A stretch of 41,185 nt of DNA from a virus, in IMG/VR virus record IMGVR_UViG_3300027737_000005, positions 1 through 41,185 of that record, one strand, 5' to 3'. Under the pieces are notes generated by a model. That model had not been told where the DNA came from, made no database searches, and saw nothing but the letters and a program-made list of their open reading frames with translations. Position 1 is the first letter of the stretch, and each line of letters begins with the position of its first letter. Positions 13,455 to 29,092 of the stretch are shown in pieces. Made by a program: the position numbers and the translations under genes.

Positions 13455-14759
13455 CTATAAAACCTGAGATGCTTGCTTCTCAGCATCATTAATGGAGATC
13501 TCACCTGATAAAAGCTTGGAAAGAAGGCTATCGCGTATAGTTGCAAGGGTATGTGATTCGCGCACATTTGCTACTAGCCTTTTTCGGAATGGAAGTATTA
13601 ATTGATAGTAATGTTCTATAAGGGCACTTGGTGGGATAACAAGGTTCGTTCCCACAATAACCCTTGCGTTCATGTTGGCTTGAACTGAGCCTCCCTTTGC
13701 TCCTTCGGCATAATTCTTATAGAGGTCTGATTTCAGGAAACCATAAATAAAGTAGCCCCAAGCTTTCGATTCTGGCTTAAGACGAACAAGATATGAAGCA
13801 AAAATCGCATCCATATCCTCCTCGATAATGGCTGATTTTCCAGGGTCTGCCATTCTAGCAACGACCAAATCACCAACAGTGAGCGTGTACCTACTCTTTA
13901 AATCTCTATCAATATCGCAATGGGGTACGGTACTCCAATCAATCCAGTTCTTCTTATTGATATCCATGACTCTCAGAAACTTTGGGCCAGCATTCTCTGC
14001 ATGCGCACTCGTTGTGTAACCGTACTGAGTAGAGCAGATTTCGGATAATTTTTTTATCTTCCATCCTTTGGGGATTAAATTCAGTTTGCAATCTTCGAAA
14101 CCATCAGGGAAAAGAGCAGCTATCTCATCGCTCATGTTTAAGGGTTTGCAACTTTTAGCTTTAGCATAAACAGGATCGAAGTCGAGAAACCAGCTTTTGA
14201 AGATCACTTGGGCCATTGTATCCAGAGTTTCATTCACCTGTCTGTTGAGTTCGATCATTTCGTCCAACCTTCCCAATATTGCTGCAATGGCTTTTTGCTC
14301 TTCAATACTCTCAGGTAGACTTACTTTGAAATTTTTAAGAGCTGTTCCCGAAATTTCTTTAAAAGTAGTTCCGCCAGCAACATTTTCAATAAATTTTGTG
14401 TAAAATTTGAGAAGATAAAATAAAAATTCTGAGTTTGCATTTTTTTTGGGAATTAGGCTTTTGAAGCCTTGATTTGTTGCAAGATCCTGTCCAGCAATTG
14501 CCACATAACCTATTGGTGCGCGAGAACTAAAAAGAACAGATCCCTTCGGAAGTAAACGAGCACCGGAACTGTTCAAACCTGAAGTAGAAATGTTTCTCTC
14601 ACCAAAATAAATATATCTATTTTGATAATTTGAGAGATCTTTAGGGGTAATCCACGGTATGTTTCCTGAGAAAAAGTTGGGGTTTTTTGTACTGGGAGTA
14701 CTGCCTCCAACAATATCAGCAATATCATTTATACAAACATTTTTCCAGCCTTTACGCAT
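13455..14759 (-). CDS. hsdS: type I restriction-modification specificity subunit HsdS (434 aa, two TRDs)
   Basis: Two TRD starts (NDIADIVGGSTPST and LSEICSTQYGYTTS) and conserved coiled-coil spacers (EEQKAIAAILGRLDEMIELN and LATIRDSLLSKLLSGEI). Confidence 0.9.
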   Translation of the reverse strand: MRKGWKNVCINDIADIVGGSTPSTKNPNFFSGNIPWITPKDLSNYQNRYIYFGERNISTSGLNSSGARLLPKGSVLFSSRAPIGYVAIAGQDLATNQGFKSLIPKKNANSEFLFYLLKFYTKFIENVAGGTTFKEISGTALKNFKVSLPESIEEQKAIAAILGRLDEMIELNRQVNETLDTMAQVIFKSWFLDFDPVYAKAKSCKPLNMSDEIAALFPDGFEDCKLNLIPKGWKIKKLSEICSTQYGYTTSAHAENAGPKFLRVMDINKKNWIDWSTVPHCDIDRDLKSRYTLTVGDLVVARMADPGKSAIIEEDMDAIFASYLVRLKPESKAWGYFIYGFLKSDLYKNYAEGAKGGSVQANMNARVIVGTNLVIPPSALIEHYYQLILPFRKRLVANVRESHTLATIRDSLLSKLLSGEISINDAEKQASQVL

Positions 14760-16302
14760 ACCCGAGTCCCTCCAAGTTGCGCTGAATTTGCTTTGTTAGC
14801 TGCTGTGCTTTATCCATCTGGGCATAGAGTTTTCCTACCAGCGCCTGCATTTGGCTTTCAAATGGTATGGTATCTTCATCGCTGATCTCTGTGCCCACGT
14901 ATCGACCAGGTGTTAAGATGTGCCCATTCTGTCGCACCTCGTCAATTGTAGCTGCCTTGCAGAAGCCTGGGATATTATCGTATGTTCCAATTCCGTTTTG
15001 ACCCCGCCAGGAATGATAGGTCATCGCAATACGATTTATTTCTTCATCGGAAAAAACCTTCTGAGTTCTTGTGGCAAGTTGGCCTAGTTGACGAGCATCA
15101 ATGAAGAGGATCTCATCGCGACGGTCCTTAAGTTTGGTTTTCCCCGACTTGCCGTTAGAGCGATTCTTTGCTAGGATCCAGAGACACGCGGGAATCTGGA
15201 CTCCAAAAAACAACTGACTTGGAAGAGCCACCATACAATCGACCAGATTATTCTCTACGAGAGCTTTGCGGATCTCGCCCTCCCCGGCGGTATTTGAGGC
15301 CATTGATCCGTTGGCAAGGACAATGCCAGCTACACCATTAGGTGTAAGATGATGAATGATGTGCTGTATCCAGGCGAAGTTTGCATTGCCTTCGGGTGGG
15401 ATTCCATACTTCCAGCGAGGGTCTTCTCTTAGTAGCTCGCCCGACCATTCTTTGATATTGAAAGGAGGATTCGCTAGGACATAGTCGAAGCGAAGATCTG
15501 GTAGGGCATCTTTTAGAAGAGTCCCTTCACTATTCCAGTGAATTTCGGCTTCTACACCTCTGATAGCGAGATTCATTTTAGCAAGTTTCCAAGTGGTGTT
15601 ATTGCGCTCTTGCCCATAGATAGCAATATCGCCAAGTTTTCCCTGGTATGCCGAGATCAGTTTCTCCGATTGGACGAAGAATCCACCTGTTCCGCAGCAA
15701 GGATCATAGACACGCCCATGTAAGGGCTCTATCATTTCGACGAGGGTGCGGACAATAGAAGCAGGTGTGTAGAAATCGCCGCCGCGCTTTCCCTCTTTAC
15801 CTGCAAATTCAGCGAGAAAGTACTCGTAAATTCTACCTAAAAAGTCGAAATCTGCCTCGCTATGTGAAAGCTTGATATTAGTGAAGAGGTCAACTAGTCG
15901 CCCTAACATAGTTGGATTCAAACTTGCTTTGCCATATTCCTTGTGAAGAACACCCTTTAACGCAACGTTCTCGCTTTCTAAGGCGCGCATCGCCTCGTCA
16001 ATCTTTTTGCCAATGTCGGGCAAACGAGCTTGTGATGCTAAGGTGGACCATCGAGCAGCTTCTGGCACCCAAAAAACATTTTCAGCTTGATACTCCTCGG
16101 GATCCTCTGCGTTGGCTAAGTCGTTTTTCAAAAGTTCGGCTTGCTTCTTTTCAAAAGCTTCTGAAAGATAACGTAGAAAAACCAGTCCAAGAACAATGTG
16201 TTTATATTCTGCAGGATCCATAGCTCCTCGGAGCTTTTCTGCGGAATCAATCAAGGAAGCTTCAAGCGATATGTCCTCTTTTTGGTTCTTTCTGGTTTTC
16301 AT
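14752..16302 (-). CDS. hsdM: type I restriction-modification N6-adenine DNA methyltransferase HsdM (516 aa)
   Basis: HsdM N-terminal domain (AEYKHIVLGLVFLRYLSEAF), motif I DPCCGTGGFF, motif IV LANPPFN. The 3' end overlaps hsdS by 8 nt. Confidence 0.9.
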   Translation of the reverse strand: MKTRKNQKEDISLEASLIDSAEKLRGAMDPAEYKHIVLGLVFLRYLSEAFEKKQAELLKNDLANAEDPEEYQAENVFWVPEAARWSTLASQARLPDIGKKIDEAMRALESENVALKGVLHKEYGKASLNPTMLGRLVDLFTNIKLSHSEADFDFLGRIYEYFLAEFAGKEGKRGGDFYTPASIVRTLVEMIEPLHGRVYDPCCGTGGFFVQSEKLISAYQGKLGDIAIYGQERNNTTWKLAKMNLAIRGVEAEIHWNSEGTLLKDALPDLRFDYVLANPPFNIKEWSGELLREDPRWKYGIPPEGNANFAWIQHIIHHLTPNGVAGIVLANGSMASNTAGEGEIRKALVENNLVDCMVALPSQLFFGVQIPACLWILAKNRSNGKSGKTKLKDRRDEILFIDARQLGQLATRTQKVFSDEEINRIAMTYHSWRGQNGIGTYDNIPGFCKAATIDEVRQNGHILTPGRYVGTEISDEDTIPFESQMQALVGKLYAQMDKAQQLTKQIQRNLEGLGYA

Positions 16303-18380: not shown

Positions 18381-20357
18381 TTACCTCATTTGGGCCATCT
18401 GGCCCTGTTGTTGATTCTGATTATTCATACTGCCCATTATCTGTGCAATAAATCTTTTAGAAGCTTCGCTCTTCTCGATATCTTTTCGCGCATTCTTTTC
18501 TGTTTCTTCTTCGTCAAATTTAATAGAGTCAAGGTTATTAGATTGTAAGAATGTTTCCAACTCTCCAAATTTCTGAATGGTTTCCAGAAGCATCGTAAGA
18601 GCCTCCATCTTTTCTTTTGTCGCTAGGCTATGGTTCTTGCTTATCTCGCTCATACGCTCTTCAAACAATCCTACATTGCTTTCACTTCTAGAATCCCTCT
18701 CACGCGCCTGGGAGAGCAGATTATGGATCCTTGCCATAAGCTCTTTCATCTTCATTTCTTCAACAGTGTGCTTGATATTAATCTCTTCTGACTGCACTGC
18801 TTGCATCTGCTGCTCTTGTTGTTGCAAAATCTGCACAATCTCTGCTTTTCCAGTGATATTGAGCTTAGGAATAATCTGAGAAGGTGAGAACACTTCGCGC
18901 CCAAAGGCCGCATTCATATCCATCATCTGCTGAGCTTGCAAGTTTTGTTGCGTCGGAGTCAAGTCACTCTCTTCGACAATACACTGAAACTTGCTAAATA
19001 TCTTACTGTAGAAATATGGAGAAGGCTCCTCGCCTATTAACAATCCAACTTTCTCAGCACTCCAATTGTTTAAGGCTATCTGCAAAAGACGTTCTCCAAG
19101 AAGTTTATCTGAAAAGTCCCACTGATCAAAATATTTCTGAAAAACCATCAAATTAGCAGCTGATTTCAACATCATCGTCAGACTACTTATCTGCTTATCA
19201 TTTTGTCCAGACCAATTCTCGAGATTAATTCCCGCTGTTTGCCATATCAAATTACCCATCTGCTCCGCAAGAGCCATATCGCTCTCTGGTACTCCAGAAG
19301 GGATAATTTTTTCACAATCCGTCATCTCGTAGCCTTCATTGATGATGACGTCCCAGCCCTGTCCAGACTTCTTAAGATTGTCTTCATTTGCAACAGCTCC
19401 AACTTTTCGCTTCCAACCCGCATTGATTGTCGCAGCTGTGATATCGTTGTTTGTGATGATCTTATAATTATAAAGAAATTGAGGATCGCGCATAGTCCGA
19501 ATAAGCCCACGAACGCGCAGATCGTAATAATTGTTATGCGGTTCGTAGTTCCAGTAATAGGGAATGAAAGGACATCCATCGAAACCAAGAGGATTATCGC
19601 CCTGAAACATCAACTGATCGTTCAGAACCACAGCAAGTTTCCAGCACGGTGCCTCTACGGTTACTTCTTCCATGTCCGGAATACTATATAAAATCTGCTC
19701 CAAGTGGCCATCATCCCCAGCAAAGTCAAAGAATTGATTCCTAGTACGACTATAAAGCCTTTTTTTCTTCCGTTTCCATTTGTACCAGACATATGAGAGC
19801 ACCATTAAATCGTTTCTCGCCATATTGTAGTTTTCCGGAAGGAAATAAAAACTTCCGTACCTCTGAGGCGTTCCAGCCATCGGCACAATAGCCTCTAACT
19901 TATCAGGAAAACGGCTTTCCGCCTCTTTTTTGCTGATGTATTCTTGACACCATACAAACTGAGCATCGCTCATATCAGGGCTTCTAAAATATGGATCTAC
20001 CAAAAACGCATTATATTCCCACAACTTGAGCTTCAGCTCTCCTTGAGCCTGATCATCTCCTGTATAGTCTAAATATGGCTGTAGAAGTACCATACCGGTG
20101 ATCGCCGACTGTTCTTTGGCTTGCGATTTTGTCTCATGAATCATCCCTTTGTTCGCCACATGCGTAATCAATTTTGTGTACTGGTCCGTCGTCTGCGGAT
20201 CCGCCCCCTCCGTCGGCACATAACTAAAATTTTTCCGATGCTGCCTCTCACACCCCGTAAGCATATTAATAGGCTGCTGGCAGATGTTAAAGTAGTACTG
20301 CTGAAACGATGTCGTAGGGCTAAAATTGAAATACCGATTCACAAACGTCTGGGCTTT
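18381..20357 (-). CDS. portal protein, main exon
   Basis: About 650 aa with a portal-like N-region (YYFNICQQPINMLTGCERQHRKNFSYVPTEGADPQTTDQYTKL, which parallels the P22 gp1 layout) and a C-terminal Q-rich coiled coil. It lies downstream of terL. The frame is open back to 20357. Confidence 0.8.
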   Translation of the reverse strand, partial: KAQTFVNRYFNFSPTTSFQQYYFNICQQPINMLTGCERQHRKNFSYVPTEGADPQTTDQYTKLITHVANKGMIHETKSQAKEQSAITGMVLLQPYLDYTGDDQAQGELKLKLWEYNAFLVDPYFRSPDMSDAQFVWCQEYISKKEAESRFPDKLEAIVPMAGTPQRYGSFYFLPENYNMARNDLMVLSYVWYKWKRKKKRLYSRTRNQFFDFAGDDGHLEQILYSIPDMEEVTVEAPCWKLAVVLNDQLMFQGDNPLGFDGCPFIPYYWNYEPHNNYYDLRVRGLIRTMRDPQFLYNYKIITNNDITAATINAGWKRKVGAVANEDNLKKSGQGWDVIINEGYEMTDCEKIIPSGVPESDMALAEQMGNLIWQTAGINLENWSGQNDKQISSLTMMLKSAANLMVFQKYFDQWDFSDKLLGERLLQIALNNWSAEKVGLLIGEEPSPYFYSKIFSKFQCIVEESDLTPTQQNLQAQQMMDMNAAFGREVFSPSQIIPKLNITGKAEIVQILQQQEQQMQAVQSEEINIKHTVEEMKMKELMARIHNLLSQARERDSRSESNVGLFEERMSEISKNHSLATKEKMEALTMLLETIQKFGELETFLQSNNLDSIKFDEEETEKNARKDIEKSEASKRFIAQIMGSMNNQNQQQGQMAQMR

Positions 20358-20650
20358 CTGTTACTTTTGTGACCTATCTCTAGGCGGGGTTCCCTCTTCG
20401 GAGATCCCTCTCCATATTACTATGGAGTTCAGACTATCGCTTCACCTTGCGGTGTCCTCTCACTTAGTCGTTCACGGTCCCTTTCGGGTTCCGCCTTGTC
20501 TTCCCATAGGGAGGTCCAAGTCAATCAGAGAAGATTTAAACAGGGCCCAATTTTCAAAAAATTACTTAACCCTGCGTAAAATAAAGTGTCAATATTAGAT
20601 TGATTCCAGCGCTACTCACTTTATTTACTAACAGTCCCGCTTTCATATTA
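20358..20650 (-). ncRNA. group I self-splicing intron at the 5' end of the portal gene, ORF-less
   Basis: P1 AACAGUCU/GGACUGUU with a U-G pair at the splice site (U20651), 12-bp P2 GUAAAUAAAGUG/CACUUUAUUUUAC, P3 UCUUCUC/GAGAGGA, GUGAACGACUAAG (20475..20463), P8 CACC-GCAA-GGUG (20454..20443), GCGAUAGUCUG (20440..20430), P9 CUCCAUA-GUAA-UAUGGAG. Confidence 0.8.
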
Positions 20651-20692
20651 AGACTGTTCTATTGGTTGAAATTTTGAATATAAATTATCCAA
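20651..20692 (-). CDS. candidate portal exon 1 (14 codons from TTG 20692; start codon uncertain)
   Basis: This is the only frame open through the 5' splice site. It reads (RQW)LDNLYSKFQPIEQS and joins in frame to KAQTFVNRYFNFSP at 20357. The frame has no ATG. Confidence 0.3.
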
Positions 20693-20932: not shown

Positions 20933-21024
20933 GATGTCAACCTCCTTAGTTGTCCTAATGAAATGCAAGCCAGGCGGTAGGAATCCGCTTTTCGAGTGCC
21001 CTCTAGGCTTGTGCAAACATTATA

Positions 21025-21225: not shown

Positions 21226-21654
21226 TCAAATTGCGTAATACTCGATTTCTTTTCGGATCAACCGCGAACTCCTGCCTAGGCGATTCAGCCAACTCTGCAT
21301 GTGCACCACCTCAGATTTTGTATCATTATCAAATTTATGCATCGGCATATTTTCCGCTTGTTTCCTTCCTCGCGCATGTTGCTTGTTGCCTCTCTTAATC
21401 CTCCTCTCCAGAGCCTGCGGAGCATCTTTCAATGGCTTTATATAAAGATTTAGGTGATATGTCTGACACGGCATTCCTTTGTCCTGATCAATGAATGCCA
21501 TCAACTGCATAATCGCACTTCGATAAGCAAGTGAGTCATAATCATGTGTACCAAACAGATCTCCCAAGATCTCTTTATCTATATGATGGTTATACTTAAT
21601 CTCTCCAACAGCACACAGTTTTTCAAATATAGCCTCTTTTTCTTTCTTTTTCAT
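21226..21654 (-). CDS. hypothetical protein (142 aa)
   Basis: ORF with a plausible start MKKKEKEAIFEKL; no motif recognised. Confidence 0.5.
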   Translation of the reverse strand: MKKKEKEAIFEKLCAVGEIKYNHHIDKEILGDLFGTHDYDSLAYRSAIMQLMAFIDQDKGMPCQTYHLNLYIKPLKDAPQALERRIKRGNKQHARGRKQAENMPMHKFDNDTKSEVVHMQSWLNRLGRSSRLIRKEIEYYAI

Positions 21655-21677: not shown

Positions 21678-21866
21678 AACAAAAAAAACTAAACGCAACT
21701 TAACATAACTAAACTGAACAAAACGTAACTCAACGCAACTTAACTTAACGAAACTTAACTTAACGAAAACTAACCTAACGAAACGGAACTTAACCTAACG
21801 AAACCAAACTCAAACTAACCAAACATAAATAAACTCAACTTAACTTAACAGAACTTAACTCAACAA
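21678..21866. repeat. G-poor tandem pentamer array (NAACN)x~38 on the plus strand, i.e. (NGTTN)n on the transcribed minus strand
   Basis: aaact aaacg caact taaca taact aaact gaaca aaacg taact caacg caact taact taacg... runs about 190 nt, is intergenic, and has only about 11 G on the plus strand. Confidence 0.85.
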
Positions 21867-21869
21867 AAA

Positions 21870-22493
21870 TTATTTTGCTTTCTTAAACTCTTCTACGCTA
21901 AACGTTCCGTAATTTCCTGTAGCCATTCCAGGTCTCAAGTCGCACAAACCATATTCATAGCCGGCTGTCTCCAAAATCATTTCCAGATCTGCTTCAGGCA
22001 ACAACTCGGTATCTAGCAACAAATTAAACTTCACTTCCCACCTATGGAAAATTGGCCTGGTTTGCACCACGCGAGCCATTCCCACTACAAGATTTTCTAC
22101 AAAAACATATGTTCTTTCCCCTTCTTCGTTTACTTCACTATAAAGCGATTCTACATTTTGTCCTTTATACGGAATCAGTGGATACCCTAAAGGTTCATCC
22201 AAAATGACCGCTTTCGTCTGCTTGCCTAATCTAAACTTCTTTGCAGACGCTTTGATGCATCCTTGAAGGCATTTCGAAGGCATATATACGCCCAATTTCT
22301 TGTCGTAGTAAAGAGCGGCCTCGAACTTTAATCTAGCCAATGCTATATGATGATCGTCTGTTTTTTTCCTAATACATGTGATTTCTTTGATCTTTTTAGT
22401 CAAAGGATGAAGTGGATTGCACGCTTTATCGCAATTCATGATAAGAGGCGTCGCCCCTTTTATATGGACACTATACTTTTTTGTGTTATTCAT
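21870..22493 (-). CDS. hypothetical protein X1 (207 aa), paralogue of 34409..35017
   Basis: Shared pattern: N-terminal hIxGxxPLxMx (VHIKGATPLIMN vs ITIRGIRPLLMH) and a C-terminal Gly-rich loop (GMATGNYGTFSV vs GRSIGMGRFEI). Confidence 0.6.
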   Translation of the reverse strand: MNNTKKYSVHIKGATPLIMNCDKACNPLHPLTKKIKEITCIRKKTDDHHIALARLKFEAALYYDKKLGVYMPSKCLQGCIKASAKKFRLGKQTKAVILDEPLGYPLIPYKGQNVESLYSEVNEEGERTYVFVENLVVGMARVVQTRPIFHRWEVKFNLLLDTELLPEADLEMILETAGYEYGLCDLRPGMATGNYGTFSVEEFKKAK

Positions 22494-27829: not shown

Positions 27830-28054
27830 TCATGGTTGAGTCCGGTTAATGAACATGCTGTCGCGTTCCCATTTTGCGCCTCTTGGTGCTGGTTTGCCTT
27901 TTCTATACCTGCGTTGCATGGAGTTTTGGCAAAGTCTGCAATTGGCCATGTAGCCTCGGGCACCTTTGTTGCGGTTTAGGTTGAATTCTAGCAGAGACTT
28001 GGTTTGCCAGCAACAACGACATGTTTTGGTTTGGATTTCGAGATCGTCGGTCAT
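27830..28054 (-). CDS. Cys-rich zinc-finger protein (74 aa)
   Basis: KTCRCCWQTKSLLEFNLNRNKGARGYMANCRLCQ (CxCC...CxxC). Confidence 0.5.
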   Translation of the reverse strand: MTDDLEIQTKTCRCCWQTKSLLEFNLNRNKGARGYMANCRLCQNSMQRRYRKGKPAPRGAKWERDSMFINRTQP

Positions 28055-28983
28055 TATCCTCTCTGTTTTTCGGCTTGTTTTTCATCTTGTTCTTTAGCAA
28101 ATTTTCTTTTAGCCCAGATTTTCCACCATCCTTGTGTGATTCCGTCTTGTAGATAGGCTTCTGTGAGTATTTCGCCTTGTGCGAATTTCTTTTTTTGCAT
28201 TGCATCGAACCAATCAAGGATCAAAAGCATGTCTTTGTGAGAATGTCGAGAAGACCATTGTTGGATGGATTGATTTTTGAGAGATGATCCATCCATGAGT
28301 TTGAACGTGGCGATACGGGCAAAGACGAGTTCGAGAAGCGATTCTTCGGACGTGTTCTCCGACGATAAAGACGAGGACGTAGACGGCTTGTTTGCCTTTT
28401 GTGAGAAAGGCGATTTCGAAGGCTGTGGCGAATGTTGATAACTCGCTTGCGAGTTATCAACATTTCCACAGCCCCTAAACGAACGTACGTCTTTTTTAAA
28501 GACGATCTCTTCGTCTTCATCCGTTGTTTGTTTTTTCCCAGGAAGATTGTCTCTCTTTTGTCTCTCTTTTGTCTCTCCTCTGGTCTCACTTTCTGTCTCA
28601 CTTTCTGTCTCTCCACTTTCGTAAAATCCATTCAACAATATATTGTAGACCTGTTTTTCTCGTCTCTCTTTTTGTCTCTCTTTTTGTCTCTCCAAAATGC
28701 GCCGGCTTTGCGCCGGCACATCGCCACGTACTTTTTTATGGCTGTTCAGTCCAATGAAATGATCGATAGCATGCTCGGCTGTTGATTTAGATGTTTTTGC
28801 CTCTTTAGCTATCTCTCGAACTGATTTTTGGCATTGACCTTTCTTCAAATTTGCTTTGTTCTGATCTTCGAAGGCTGTATGCCGTAAAATAGTTATCAAA
28901 ACCATTTTATAGTCATTGGAAGCTTTTTCCCACAAAACGTGTTCGAAAAGTTCTTCCGGTATTTGGGTGAATTTTTTAGCCAT
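28054..28983 (-). CDS. replication initiator-like protein with an N-terminal winged HTH (309 aa from ATG 28983)
   Basis: AAGGAG RBS then ATG. MAKKFTQIPEELFEHVLW...SVREIAKEAKTSKSTAEHAIDHFIGL, with central RQKERQKER and ETESETESETRGETKERQKRD repeats encoded by DNA iterons. Confidence 0.5.
   Translation of the reverse strand: MAKKFTQIPEELFEHVLWEKASNDYKMVLITILRHTAFEDQNKANLKKGQCQKSVREIAKEAKTSKSTAEHAIDHFIGLNSHKKVRGDVPAQSRRILERQKERQKERREKQVYNILLNGFYESGETESETESETRGETKERQKRDNLPGKKQTTDEDEEIVFKKDVRSFRGCGNVDNSQASYQHSPQPSKSPFSQKANKPSTSSSLSSENTSEESLLELVFARIATFKLMDGSSLKNQSIQQWSSRHSHKDMLLILDWFDAMQKKKFAQGEILTEAYLQDGITQGWWKIWAKRKFAKEQDEKQAEKQRG
28549..28692. repeat. iteron-like direct repeats flanking an AT-rich segment, inside the initiator gene (candidate ori)
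   Basis: TCTCTCTTTTG x2, TCTCTCCTCTGG, TCTCACTTTCTG x2, then AT-rich 28622-28658, then TCTCTCTTTTTG x2. Confidence 0.5.
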
Positions 28984-29061
28984 TGAGATCTCCTTGCGTG
29001 AATTGTGGAGATCTGCTATAACTAGAAGCAATTGTCGTAGCTTCTGCATAGCAGATCGAAT

Positions 29062-29092
29062 GGCCCGTTTCCAGCGGGCCATTTGTTTTTAT
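29062..29092 (+). terminator. plus-strand intrinsic terminator antisense to the initiator-gene leader
   Basis: GGCCCG-tttccag-CGGGCC followed by ATTTGTTTTTA. Confidence 0.45.

Follow-up and report, generated by a model that had tools for sequence, protein, structure and literature searches.

The window considered here is the whole stretch of 41,185 nucleotides (nt) of the IMG/VR virus record IMGVR_UViG_3300027737_000005, and the analysis concerns the 5' end of its portal gene and the group I introns predicted there. The portal gene lies on the minus strand, as do all the portal and capsid gene elements described below, and its open reading frame (ORF) matches the Pfam family P22_portal (E = 8e-49). 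Gene callers shorten it to 627 or 587 amino acids (aa). A protein search for portal homologues returned 2395 sequences, most of them 700-720 aa long; no close relative was found among cultured phage records by DNA or protein search, the best portal matches being those to Ralstonia and Pseudomonas phages with 21% identity. In a preliminary description of this DNA, a single 293-nt intron (20650-20358), regarded as the third member of a family present in the capsid gene, had been placed at the extreme 5' end of the portal gene, behind an exon 1 without an ATG. The family membership and the lack of an ATG were borne out by the present analysis, while the exon structure had to be revised.

The exon boundaries were deduced with a custom spliced protein-to-DNA alignment, which was applied to 106 non-redundant portal 5' regions from IMG/VR and JGI/ENA metagenomes. 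Portal homologues without introns have the N-terminus MSFYYPPWNNALEPNQGNVRQWLDNLYSKFQPIEQS-RWNQSNIDTLFYAGS-QTFVNRYFNFSP, and across the region in question they read ...PIEQS-RWNQSNIDTLFYAGS-QTFVNRYF. In the window, the frame encoding ...PIEQS stops at 20651, the next 39 nt hold three in-frame stop codons, and the same frame then continues with RWNQSNIDTLFYAG, which is encoded at 20611-20569, within the stretch previously called intron, and is colinear with the intron-less homologues. The alignment opened a 39-nt gap after the Ser codon and a 215-nt gap within the next Ser codon (U|CC), so that the comparison with intron-less portals, which had been proposed as a way of locating the insertion point, revealed two separate inserts around a mini-exon instead of a single intron. 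The deduced structure consists of exon 1 (20758-20651; 36 codons beginning with ATT, (M)SFYYPPWNNALEPNQGNVRQWLDNLYSKFQPIEQS), a mini-intron of 39 nt (20650-20612), a mini-exon of 43 nt (20611-20569; CGC UGG ... GCA GGG U, that is, RWNQSNIDTLFYAG and the first base of a Ser codon), a full group I intron of 215 nt (20568-20354) and exon 2 (20353-18381; CC CAG ACG ... to the stop codon). The amino acids of exon 1 are 100% colinear with the intron-less homologues P0002, P0006 and P0027, and the U|CC junction rebuilds the Ser codon to give FYAG-S-QTFVNRYF, which matches the homologues. The predicted spliced portal protein of 707 aa is colinear with the intron-less homologues and falls within their length range, and a direct join of 20651 to 20353 would leave the frame (UCU CCC AGA CGU UUG UGA).

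The beginning of exon 1 was assigned by the same alignment. The Zn-ribbon ORF upstream of the portal gene ends at TAG 20788-20786, in frame with portal exon 1, and no ATG, GTG or TTG is found between this stop codon and 20692, where a TTG had previously been suggested as the start. ATT 20758 sits exactly at the aligned start codon of the relatives, 4 nt downstream of the Shine-Dalgarno sequence GAGGTG (20768-20763); in the relatives the portal start is nearly always located behind GGAGG at this place. We thus consider ATT 20758, rather than TTG 20692, the best candidate for the start of portal translation. Among the 106 non-redundant relatives (loci L001-L165), the codons most often found at the aligned start were TTG (32), ATT (28), ATG (13), ATC (10), GTG (8) and ACG (8). 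Weak or near-cognate initiation (AUU, AUC, ACG) seems to be a trait of this portal family, and it suggests that portal initiation is deliberately weak. As a separate observation, the portal gene is preceded by a Cys-rich ORF of 48 aa (20932-20786), in frame with portal exon 1, and immediately in front of this ORF the int-alpA RNA motif RF02996 was detected at 20944-21013 on the minus strand (41.3 bits, gathering score 35.8).

The 215-nt element shows the organization of a group I ribozyme. The last bases of the mini-exon, GCAGGGU (20575-20569), form its P1 with the guide GCCCUGU (20546-20540), which follows the L1 hairpin (20563-20549), and U20569, the 5' splice site, pairs with G. The core comprises P3 (20534-20528 with 20461-20455), J3/4-P4 (20527-20516) followed by P5, P6 (20494-20474), P7 (GACUA 20469-20465 with UAGUC 20436-20432) and P8 (20454-20443), and it is continued by P9 (20427-20410), P9.1 (20408-20387) and P9.2 (20384-20373). 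The conserved GUAACAG is located at 20364-20358 and the terminal G at 20354. The motifs quoted in the preliminary description could all be retrieved on the minus strand as given there: GUGAACGACUAAG at 20475-20463, GCGAUAGUCUG at 20440-20430, P8 CACC-GCAA-GGUG, P3 UCUUCUC/GAGAGGA, P9 CUCCAUA-GUAA-UAUGGAG and the hairpin AACAGUCU/GGACUGUU. In the relatives, the 3' splice site is a G located 4-5 nt past GUAACAG, from which the exon continues in agreement with the homologues; its counterpart in the window is G20354, and not G20358 as assumed earlier.

A search with an nhmmer profile of the family found exactly three copies in the window, at 20562-20349, 12430-12218 and 12802-12533, with E-values of 4e-50 for the portal copy and of 6e-43 and 2e-38 for the other two. 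Fifteen full-length intron copies, including the three from the window, were aligned, and a consensus with P3, P4, P5, P6, P8, P9 and P9.1 was obtained, to which the P7 pseudoknot was added. Over the resulting 40 pairs of 8 helices, 97.5% of the cells are paired, in comparison with 40-46% in slid controls, and both-side compensatory changes occur in 28 of the 40 pairs; these values are reached by none of 500 shuffles. An own-exon P1 of 7-8 bp ending in a U.G pair can be formed by all 16 family members. Homology to the family, core covariation, a P1 with U.G, a terminal G and restoration of the frame are all found for 20568-20354, which, judged by these features, is an ordinary group I ribozyme of the capsid-intron family with a covariation-backed fold and predicted self-splicing.

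The 39-nt element, whose sequence is UAAUAUGAAAGCGGGACUGUUAGUAAAUAAAGUGAGUAG, is composed of a loop, a guide, one strand of a further helix and a tail. Following the loop L1 (20650-20642), the guide (20641-20630) is divided into AGCG (20641-20638) and GGACUGUU (20637-20630). The latter forms P1 with AACAGUCU (20658-20651), the last 8 nt of exon 1, in a helix of 8 bp in which U20651, the 5' splice site of the mini-intron, is wobble-paired to G; the former, the 4 bases located 5' of the splice-site G, forms a P10 of 4 bp with CGCU at the beginning of the mini-exon. The element ends in G20612. The P1 previously proposed at U20651 is therefore a real and conserved helix, although it guides the mini-intron and not the ribozyme-bearing intron, whose 5' splice site is U20569. 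A P1 with U.G, a contiguous P10 and a terminal G are all substrate signals of group I introns; a catalytic core was not found in the 39-nt element by nhmmer, and a P3-P9 domain with a G-binding site of its own is lacking. It can thus not be a self-splicing group I intron, despite these signals.

In relatives, the same codon boundary is interrupted by homologous mini-introns of 31, 32, 34 and 35 nt, and mini-introns of the same design were identified at two further portal sites, one within a Trp codon (U|GG) and one between FQP and IEQ. Every one of them starts after a U wobble-paired to G and ends in G. P1 and P10, as well as the tether helix described below, were scored in 13 of the 15 distinct mini-introns, covering all five sites known from the window and its relatives (the two of L024 were left out). 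Each of these 13 units forms a P1 of 7-9 bp and a contiguous P10 of 2-7 bp at its own junction, with sums of 10-15; in the cross-site controls the sum averages 4.0 and peaks at 8, so that none of them (0/118) reaches 10. Compensatory changes can be observed in P1, as in CCUCCGU/GCGGAGG to CCUCCAU/GUGGAGG and in AACAGUCU/GGACUGUU to AACAGGCU/GGUCUGUU, and in L108, where the exon sequence GGCU is accompanied by the guide GGUC instead of GUCU/GGAC. A search for core remnants in the mini-introns brought up short core-like sequences of 7-9 nt, for instance AUGCGAUAG in capsid mini-intron 1, AAGUGAG in the portal mini-intron and UGAUUGA in the FQP|I class; they are suggestive of an origin of the mini-introns by internal deletion, but are not significant alone (nhmmer E = 4.3).

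The guide and the splice signals bear directly on the single-intron structure proposed earlier, which would join ...IEQS to KAQTFVNRYF, or alternatively would place the intron in the 5' untranslated region of a portal gene starting at GTG 20342. The P1 AACAGUCU/GGACUGUU and the long second helix on which this structure was built are indeed real, and the junction 20651|20357 is in frame. Splicing of 20651 to 20357, however, would remove RWNQSNIDTLFYAGS and with it 14 residues that are invariant in all the homologues and are encoded in frame at 20611-20569 with synonymous-only divergence. The P10 part of the guide pairs with CGCU at 20611 and not with 20357, and since the spacer past GUAACAG measures 4 or 5 nt in the relatives, agreement with the homologues is regained at the U|...G| sites only. 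If translation began at 20342, about 50 conserved N-terminal residues would be lost, which are under purifying selection in insert-bearing genomes, and the P22_portal alignment of the ORF truncated in this way starts only at profile position 46. Both forms of the single-intron structure are for these reasons considered highly improbable.

An explanation at the level of translation was also considered, in which the 39 nt would be kept in the mRNA and skipped by the ribosome by programmed bypassing of the type known from gene 60 of phage T4. The short size of the insert (31-39 nt), the UAA directly after the last sense codon UCU and the hairpin spanning the take-off site (20658-20630) would suit such a mechanism; a stop codon after UCU and a hairpin are, however, typically seen at the 5' splice sites of phage group I introns as well, and do not discriminate between the two. 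The landing codon never matches the take-off codon UCU, since the bases before CGC are UAG, AAG or AUG. Bypassing would have no use for P10, for the invariant terminal G or for the U.G pair, and it gives no reason for the dependence on a downstream ribozyme. At another site, mini-introns of the same architecture split a Trp codon (U|GG), which can be restored by RNA joining only and cannot be rebuilt by hopping. Simple read-through is in turn precluded by the lengths of 31, 32, 34, 35 and 39 nt and by the stop codons carried. Bypassing therefore appears very unlikely to us.

The remaining part of the mini-intron pairs with the mini-exon. The strand GUAAAUAAAGUG (20628-20617) in the mini-intron tail and the strand CACUUUAUUUUAC (20588-20576) in the mini-exon form a helix, named Px here, which had been described as a 12-bp P2; the helix is real and conserved, but it joins the tail of the mini-intron to the mini-exon. 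In the 13 units scored, the best duplex between tail and mini-exon comprises 8-19 bp, with energies of -7.6 to -19.2 kcal/mol and z-scores of -2.3 to -6.6. Px starts right after the guide of the mini-intron, and its 3' end is always located 6-7 nt before the 5' splice site of the full intron, so that it abuts the P1 of the latter. In agreement with this, the minimum-free-energy fold of 20662-20536 consists of three abutting helices, namely the P1 of the mini-intron, Px and the P1 of the full intron. Where the Thr-Leu-Phe-Tyr codons of the mini-exon carry synonymous changes, Px covaries with them, and covariation is thus seen in each of P1, P10 and Px of the mini-introns. A comparison of the portal mini-exon in five insert-bearing genomes shows changes in 8 of the 14 codons, every one of them synonymous.

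The same arrangement is found twice in the capsid gene of the window. The first unit consists of a mini-intron of 35 nt (12869-12835; P1 UUUCGGU/GCCGAAA, P10 ACUGGC/GCCAGU, terminal G), a mini-exon of 26 nt encoding TGCIINEQ(V) (12834-12809) and a full group I intron of 274 nt with an insertion in P6 (12808-12535). It is separated by a short exon (12534-12513) from the second unit, in which a mini-intron of 33 nt (12512-12480; P1 AGGAGGGU/GCCCUCUU, P10 GUACUUG/UGAGUAC, terminal G) is followed by a mini-exon of 54 nt encoding VLAWVSERLAVAMRQAED (12479-12426) and by a full group I intron of 204 nt (12425-12222). After removal of all four elements, the capsid sequence is colinear with the intron-less capsid homologues. 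The capsid mini-exons differ from the intron-less relatives at 6-7 of 27 nt and at 15-18 of 54 nt, and yet the encoded amino acids are almost unchanged. Since the changes are synonymous in the portal gene and nearly without effect on the protein in the capsid gene, the mini-exons are evidently translated.

Altogether, 15 distinct units of a mini-intron and a full intron were collected at the five sites, and in 15 of 15 the full intron is located 26-55 nt downstream of the mini-intron. Full introns without a mini-intron exist (e.g. in L023, L030, L115 and L116); a mini-intron without a full intron was never seen in this material. The analysis was extended by a scan of IMG/VR for a core motif, which yielded at least 120 introns of the family on diverse contigs, and by a detector that makes no use of protein similarity and requires a mini-intron P1 with U.G, a P10, a Px abutting the P1 of the full intron and an ORF that is restored only upon removal of the inserts. 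Among 88 unrelated introns of the family, this detector identified three additional units (L178, L196 and L280), as compared with none at 264 decoy positions; two of them are located in distant capsid homologues and one in a different capsid-like gene. In L280, the FYG|T capsid mini-intron site is paired, via an adapted Px, with a full intron located 50 nt downstream, and not 26-27 nt.

The recurrence of the units is also relevant to the view that the portal and capsid genes are simply broken by insertions, in a defective phage or through an assembly artefact, the helices being incidental. In-frame stop codons, the absence of a canonical start codon and the truncation of the genes by the gene callers could be explained in this way. 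The stretch 20800-20330 is, however, identical in three independent metagenomes, diverged relatives keep the units with compensatory and synonymous-only changes, and ATT and other near-cognate codons are common at the portal start in this family. We attach hardly any probability to this view.

In the clade, the first 150 nt of the portal gene are a hot spot of introns (L022/L110, L024, L030, L058, L078, L088, L107, L160 and others), with full group I introns at at least four sites (after DN(L), NQS, NID and YAG) and mini-introns at three; some genomes pack two mini-introns and two full introns into 150 coding nt. Another type of insert, absent from the window, was noticed in the portal genes of relatives, at the EQS/RW codons in L038, L039, L087, L101, L109, L155 and L161 and at the TF/VN codons in L116. 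It consists of a GC-rich and nearly perfect hairpin of 16-18 bp within 45-55 nt (-31 to -40 kcal/mol), with compensatory changes and flanked by an imperfect direct repeat; it does not follow the U...G rule, has no intron nearby, and its length is often not a multiple of 3. Hopping or other RNA processing are possibilities for the reading of the ORF across these hairpin inserts.

On the basis of the exon structure, the splice signals and the association described above, the 5' end of the portal gene probably harbors a composite, two-part group I intron, in which the mini-intron is spliced in cis by the neighboring ribozyme. The neighbor is the preferred catalyst because the mini-intron carries group I substrate signals without a catalyst, and a core lies directly downstream, tethered to it via Px. 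We also favor, with somewhat less confidence, a more general proposal: that core-less "satellite" group I introns of 31-55 nt, consisting of a guide, a tether helix and a terminal G, are excised by the ribozyme of the next downstream intron, a single core performing two ordered reactions with two guides. According to this proposal, Px would set the order, with the mini-intron removed first, and the units would represent a natural intermediate between introns that splice themselves and introns that depend on supplied catalytic RNA.

Px would stack directly between the P1 helices of the mini-intron and the full intron. The P1 of the mini-intron would thereby take up the position, with respect to the core, that P1 has in an intron with P2 and P2.1. 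In the first step, the core of the downstream intron would dock the P1 of the mini-intron. Guanosine would then attack at U20651, and exon 1 would be ligated to the mini-exon past G20612, both transesterifications being carried out by the neighboring core. The loss of the tail would dissolve Px and free the own P1 of the full intron, which would finally self-splice to give ...PIEQS|RWNQSNIDTLFYAG|SQTFVNRYF.... The predicted RNA junctions are AACAGUCU|CGCUGG (UCU|CGC) and GCAGGGU|CCCAGACG (GGGU|CCCAG), and the peptides IEQSR/WNQSNIDTLFYAGSQTFVNR and FYAGSQTF would be expected to span the junctions in the portal protein.

The same group I chemistry could also be supplied in trans, by any of the three ribozymes encoded in the genome, either free or in unspliced RNA. 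The Tetrahymena L-21 ScaI ribozyme and engineered trans-splicing ribozymes are examples of group I cores that process a P1 offered in trans; three closely related ribozymes are present in the late-gene transcripts; and the P1 of the mini-intron forms a hairpin by itself, which a core could accept as an external substrate. Trans action, however, would leave unexplained both the 26-55-nt spacing between mini-intron and full intron in all 15 units and the pairing of the tail with the mini-exon beside the P1 of the neighbor. It is also difficult to reconcile with L280, in which a capsid mini-intron site is coupled by an adapted Px to a full intron elsewhere downstream. Although trans action is a more serious alternative than the ones discussed above, we consider it unlikely, and we infer that the mini-intron is removed at the RNA level, by the neighboring ribozyme acting in cis and before the full intron.

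Several points weigh against this interpretation. The splicing of both elements is deduced from DNA alone, and the initiation at ATT from the alignment position and the Shine-Dalgarno sequence only. Excision of a second intron that lacks a core is not known to us from any natural group I ribozyme, although one core could plausibly dock another P1 and another terminal G besides its own. The sequence by itself cannot separate cis action from trans action by the three ribozymes of the genome. The P10 of the full portal intron has just 2 bp. Moreover, the search with the Rfam model RF00028, which had been suggested as a check, gave a match at 20592-20410 with 27 bits (351-nt search, E = 4e-5), below the gathering score of 50, and the capsid copies were missed by the model even at E <= 1; no group I match was obtained in a scan of the whole window at the gathering score, nor in a 9-kb scan at E <= 10. 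We read these low scores as a consequence of a divergent family and of the limited sensitivity of the model.

Some other features of the window can be mentioned. Genes of a type I restriction-modification system, hsdM (14752-16302) and hsdS (13455-14759), are located on the minus strand between the head-assembly genes and the capsid gene, and no R subunit was seen beside them. The region has the appearance of a cassette inserted here, because the capsid gene begins 5.2 kb after the portal gene, as compared with about 2.1 kb in the relatives. Between the ORFs 21226-21654 and 21870-22493, the intergenic stretch 21686-21868 is occupied by an array of about 36 imperfect pentamers (AAACT/AACTT; periods of 15, 20 or 30 nt can also be recognized). 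A perfect inverted repeat with 16-nt arms, AATGTTGATAACTCGC and GCGAGTTATCAACATT, which are 2 nt apart, was found at 28431-28464 within the ORF 28054-29082.

The full intron adds a further member to a known kind of intron, and the composite unit of mini-intron and full intron represents, as far as its deduced structure goes, a novel variation on group I organization; a literature search of incomplete coverage turned up neither an account of group I mini-introns without a core nor one of a ribozyme that serves two introns. If spliced as predicted, the mini-introns would rank as the smallest introns in nature to rely on group I chemistry, and their partners would be, to our knowledge, the first natural group I ribozymes known to process a second, core-less intron. 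The units would then provide a living example of the division of labor between a substrate-only intron and a catalytic RNA, an idea otherwise put forward to account for group III introns and for how spliceosomal splicing arose. The findings also matter for annotation, as inserts of 30-50 nt, introns and near-cognate starts are all overlooked by gene callers, which truncate the capsid and portal genes in a widespread clade of uncultured soil and peat phages (the 2395 portal homologues). In addition, the Px-tethered design with two guides may be of interest for group I engineering, including circular RNA production and trans-splicing.

Among phage introns, the closest parallel is offered by orf142 of the Staphylococcus phage Twort, for which Landthaler and Shub reportedly described, in 1999, three introns and exon skipping. 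As in Twort, related group I introns are clustered in a phage gene with very short exons between them, they contain no homing-endonuclease ORF, and they follow the U.G and terminal-G splice rules. Each Twort intron, however, has its own core, whereas here the upstream partner has 31-55 nt, lacks P3-P9 and is tethered by Px to the P1 of its neighbor. Degenerate mini-introns are known in another class, namely the group III introns of Euglena chloroplasts, which are degenerate mini group II introns. Like these, the mini-introns described here have lost most of the catalytic structure and kept the splice signals, the catalytic parts being thought to be supplied from elsewhere; they differ in intron class and chemistry, are smaller, and are physically coupled to a specific neighboring ribozyme. 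With the 50-nt bypass element of T4 gene 60 they share the short non-coding insert in a phage ORF, the stop codon after the last sense codon and the hairpin at that place, but not the matched take-off and landing codons, and they are further distinguished by the relatives that split a codon, by P1, P10 and the terminal G, and by the association with a ribozyme.

Bacterial and phage group I introns have been reviewed (PMC3984707). With 204-274 nt and a compact P3-P9 ribozyme, the full elements resemble the tRNA introns of Azoarcus and Anabaena (about 205-250 nt), and they share with small bacterial introns the GNRA loops on P8 and P9 and the peripheral P9.1 and P9.2. Unlike the Azoarcus and Anabaena introns, they lack P2, reside in protein-coding late genes of phages and score below the RF00028 threshold. 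The predicted action of a core on a P1 outside the 5' end of its own intron is reminiscent of engineered trans-splicing ribozymes (PMC3895272, PMC6155759); those systems are laboratory constructs in which the guide belongs to the ribozyme, whereas here the natural substrate would carry its own guide. Finally, the twin-ribozyme introns of Didymium, with DiGIR1 and DiGIR2 (PMC3679873), are likewise composite group I elements with more than one functional RNA module. There, one intron contains two ribozymes, whereas in the units described here one ribozyme apparently serves two introns.

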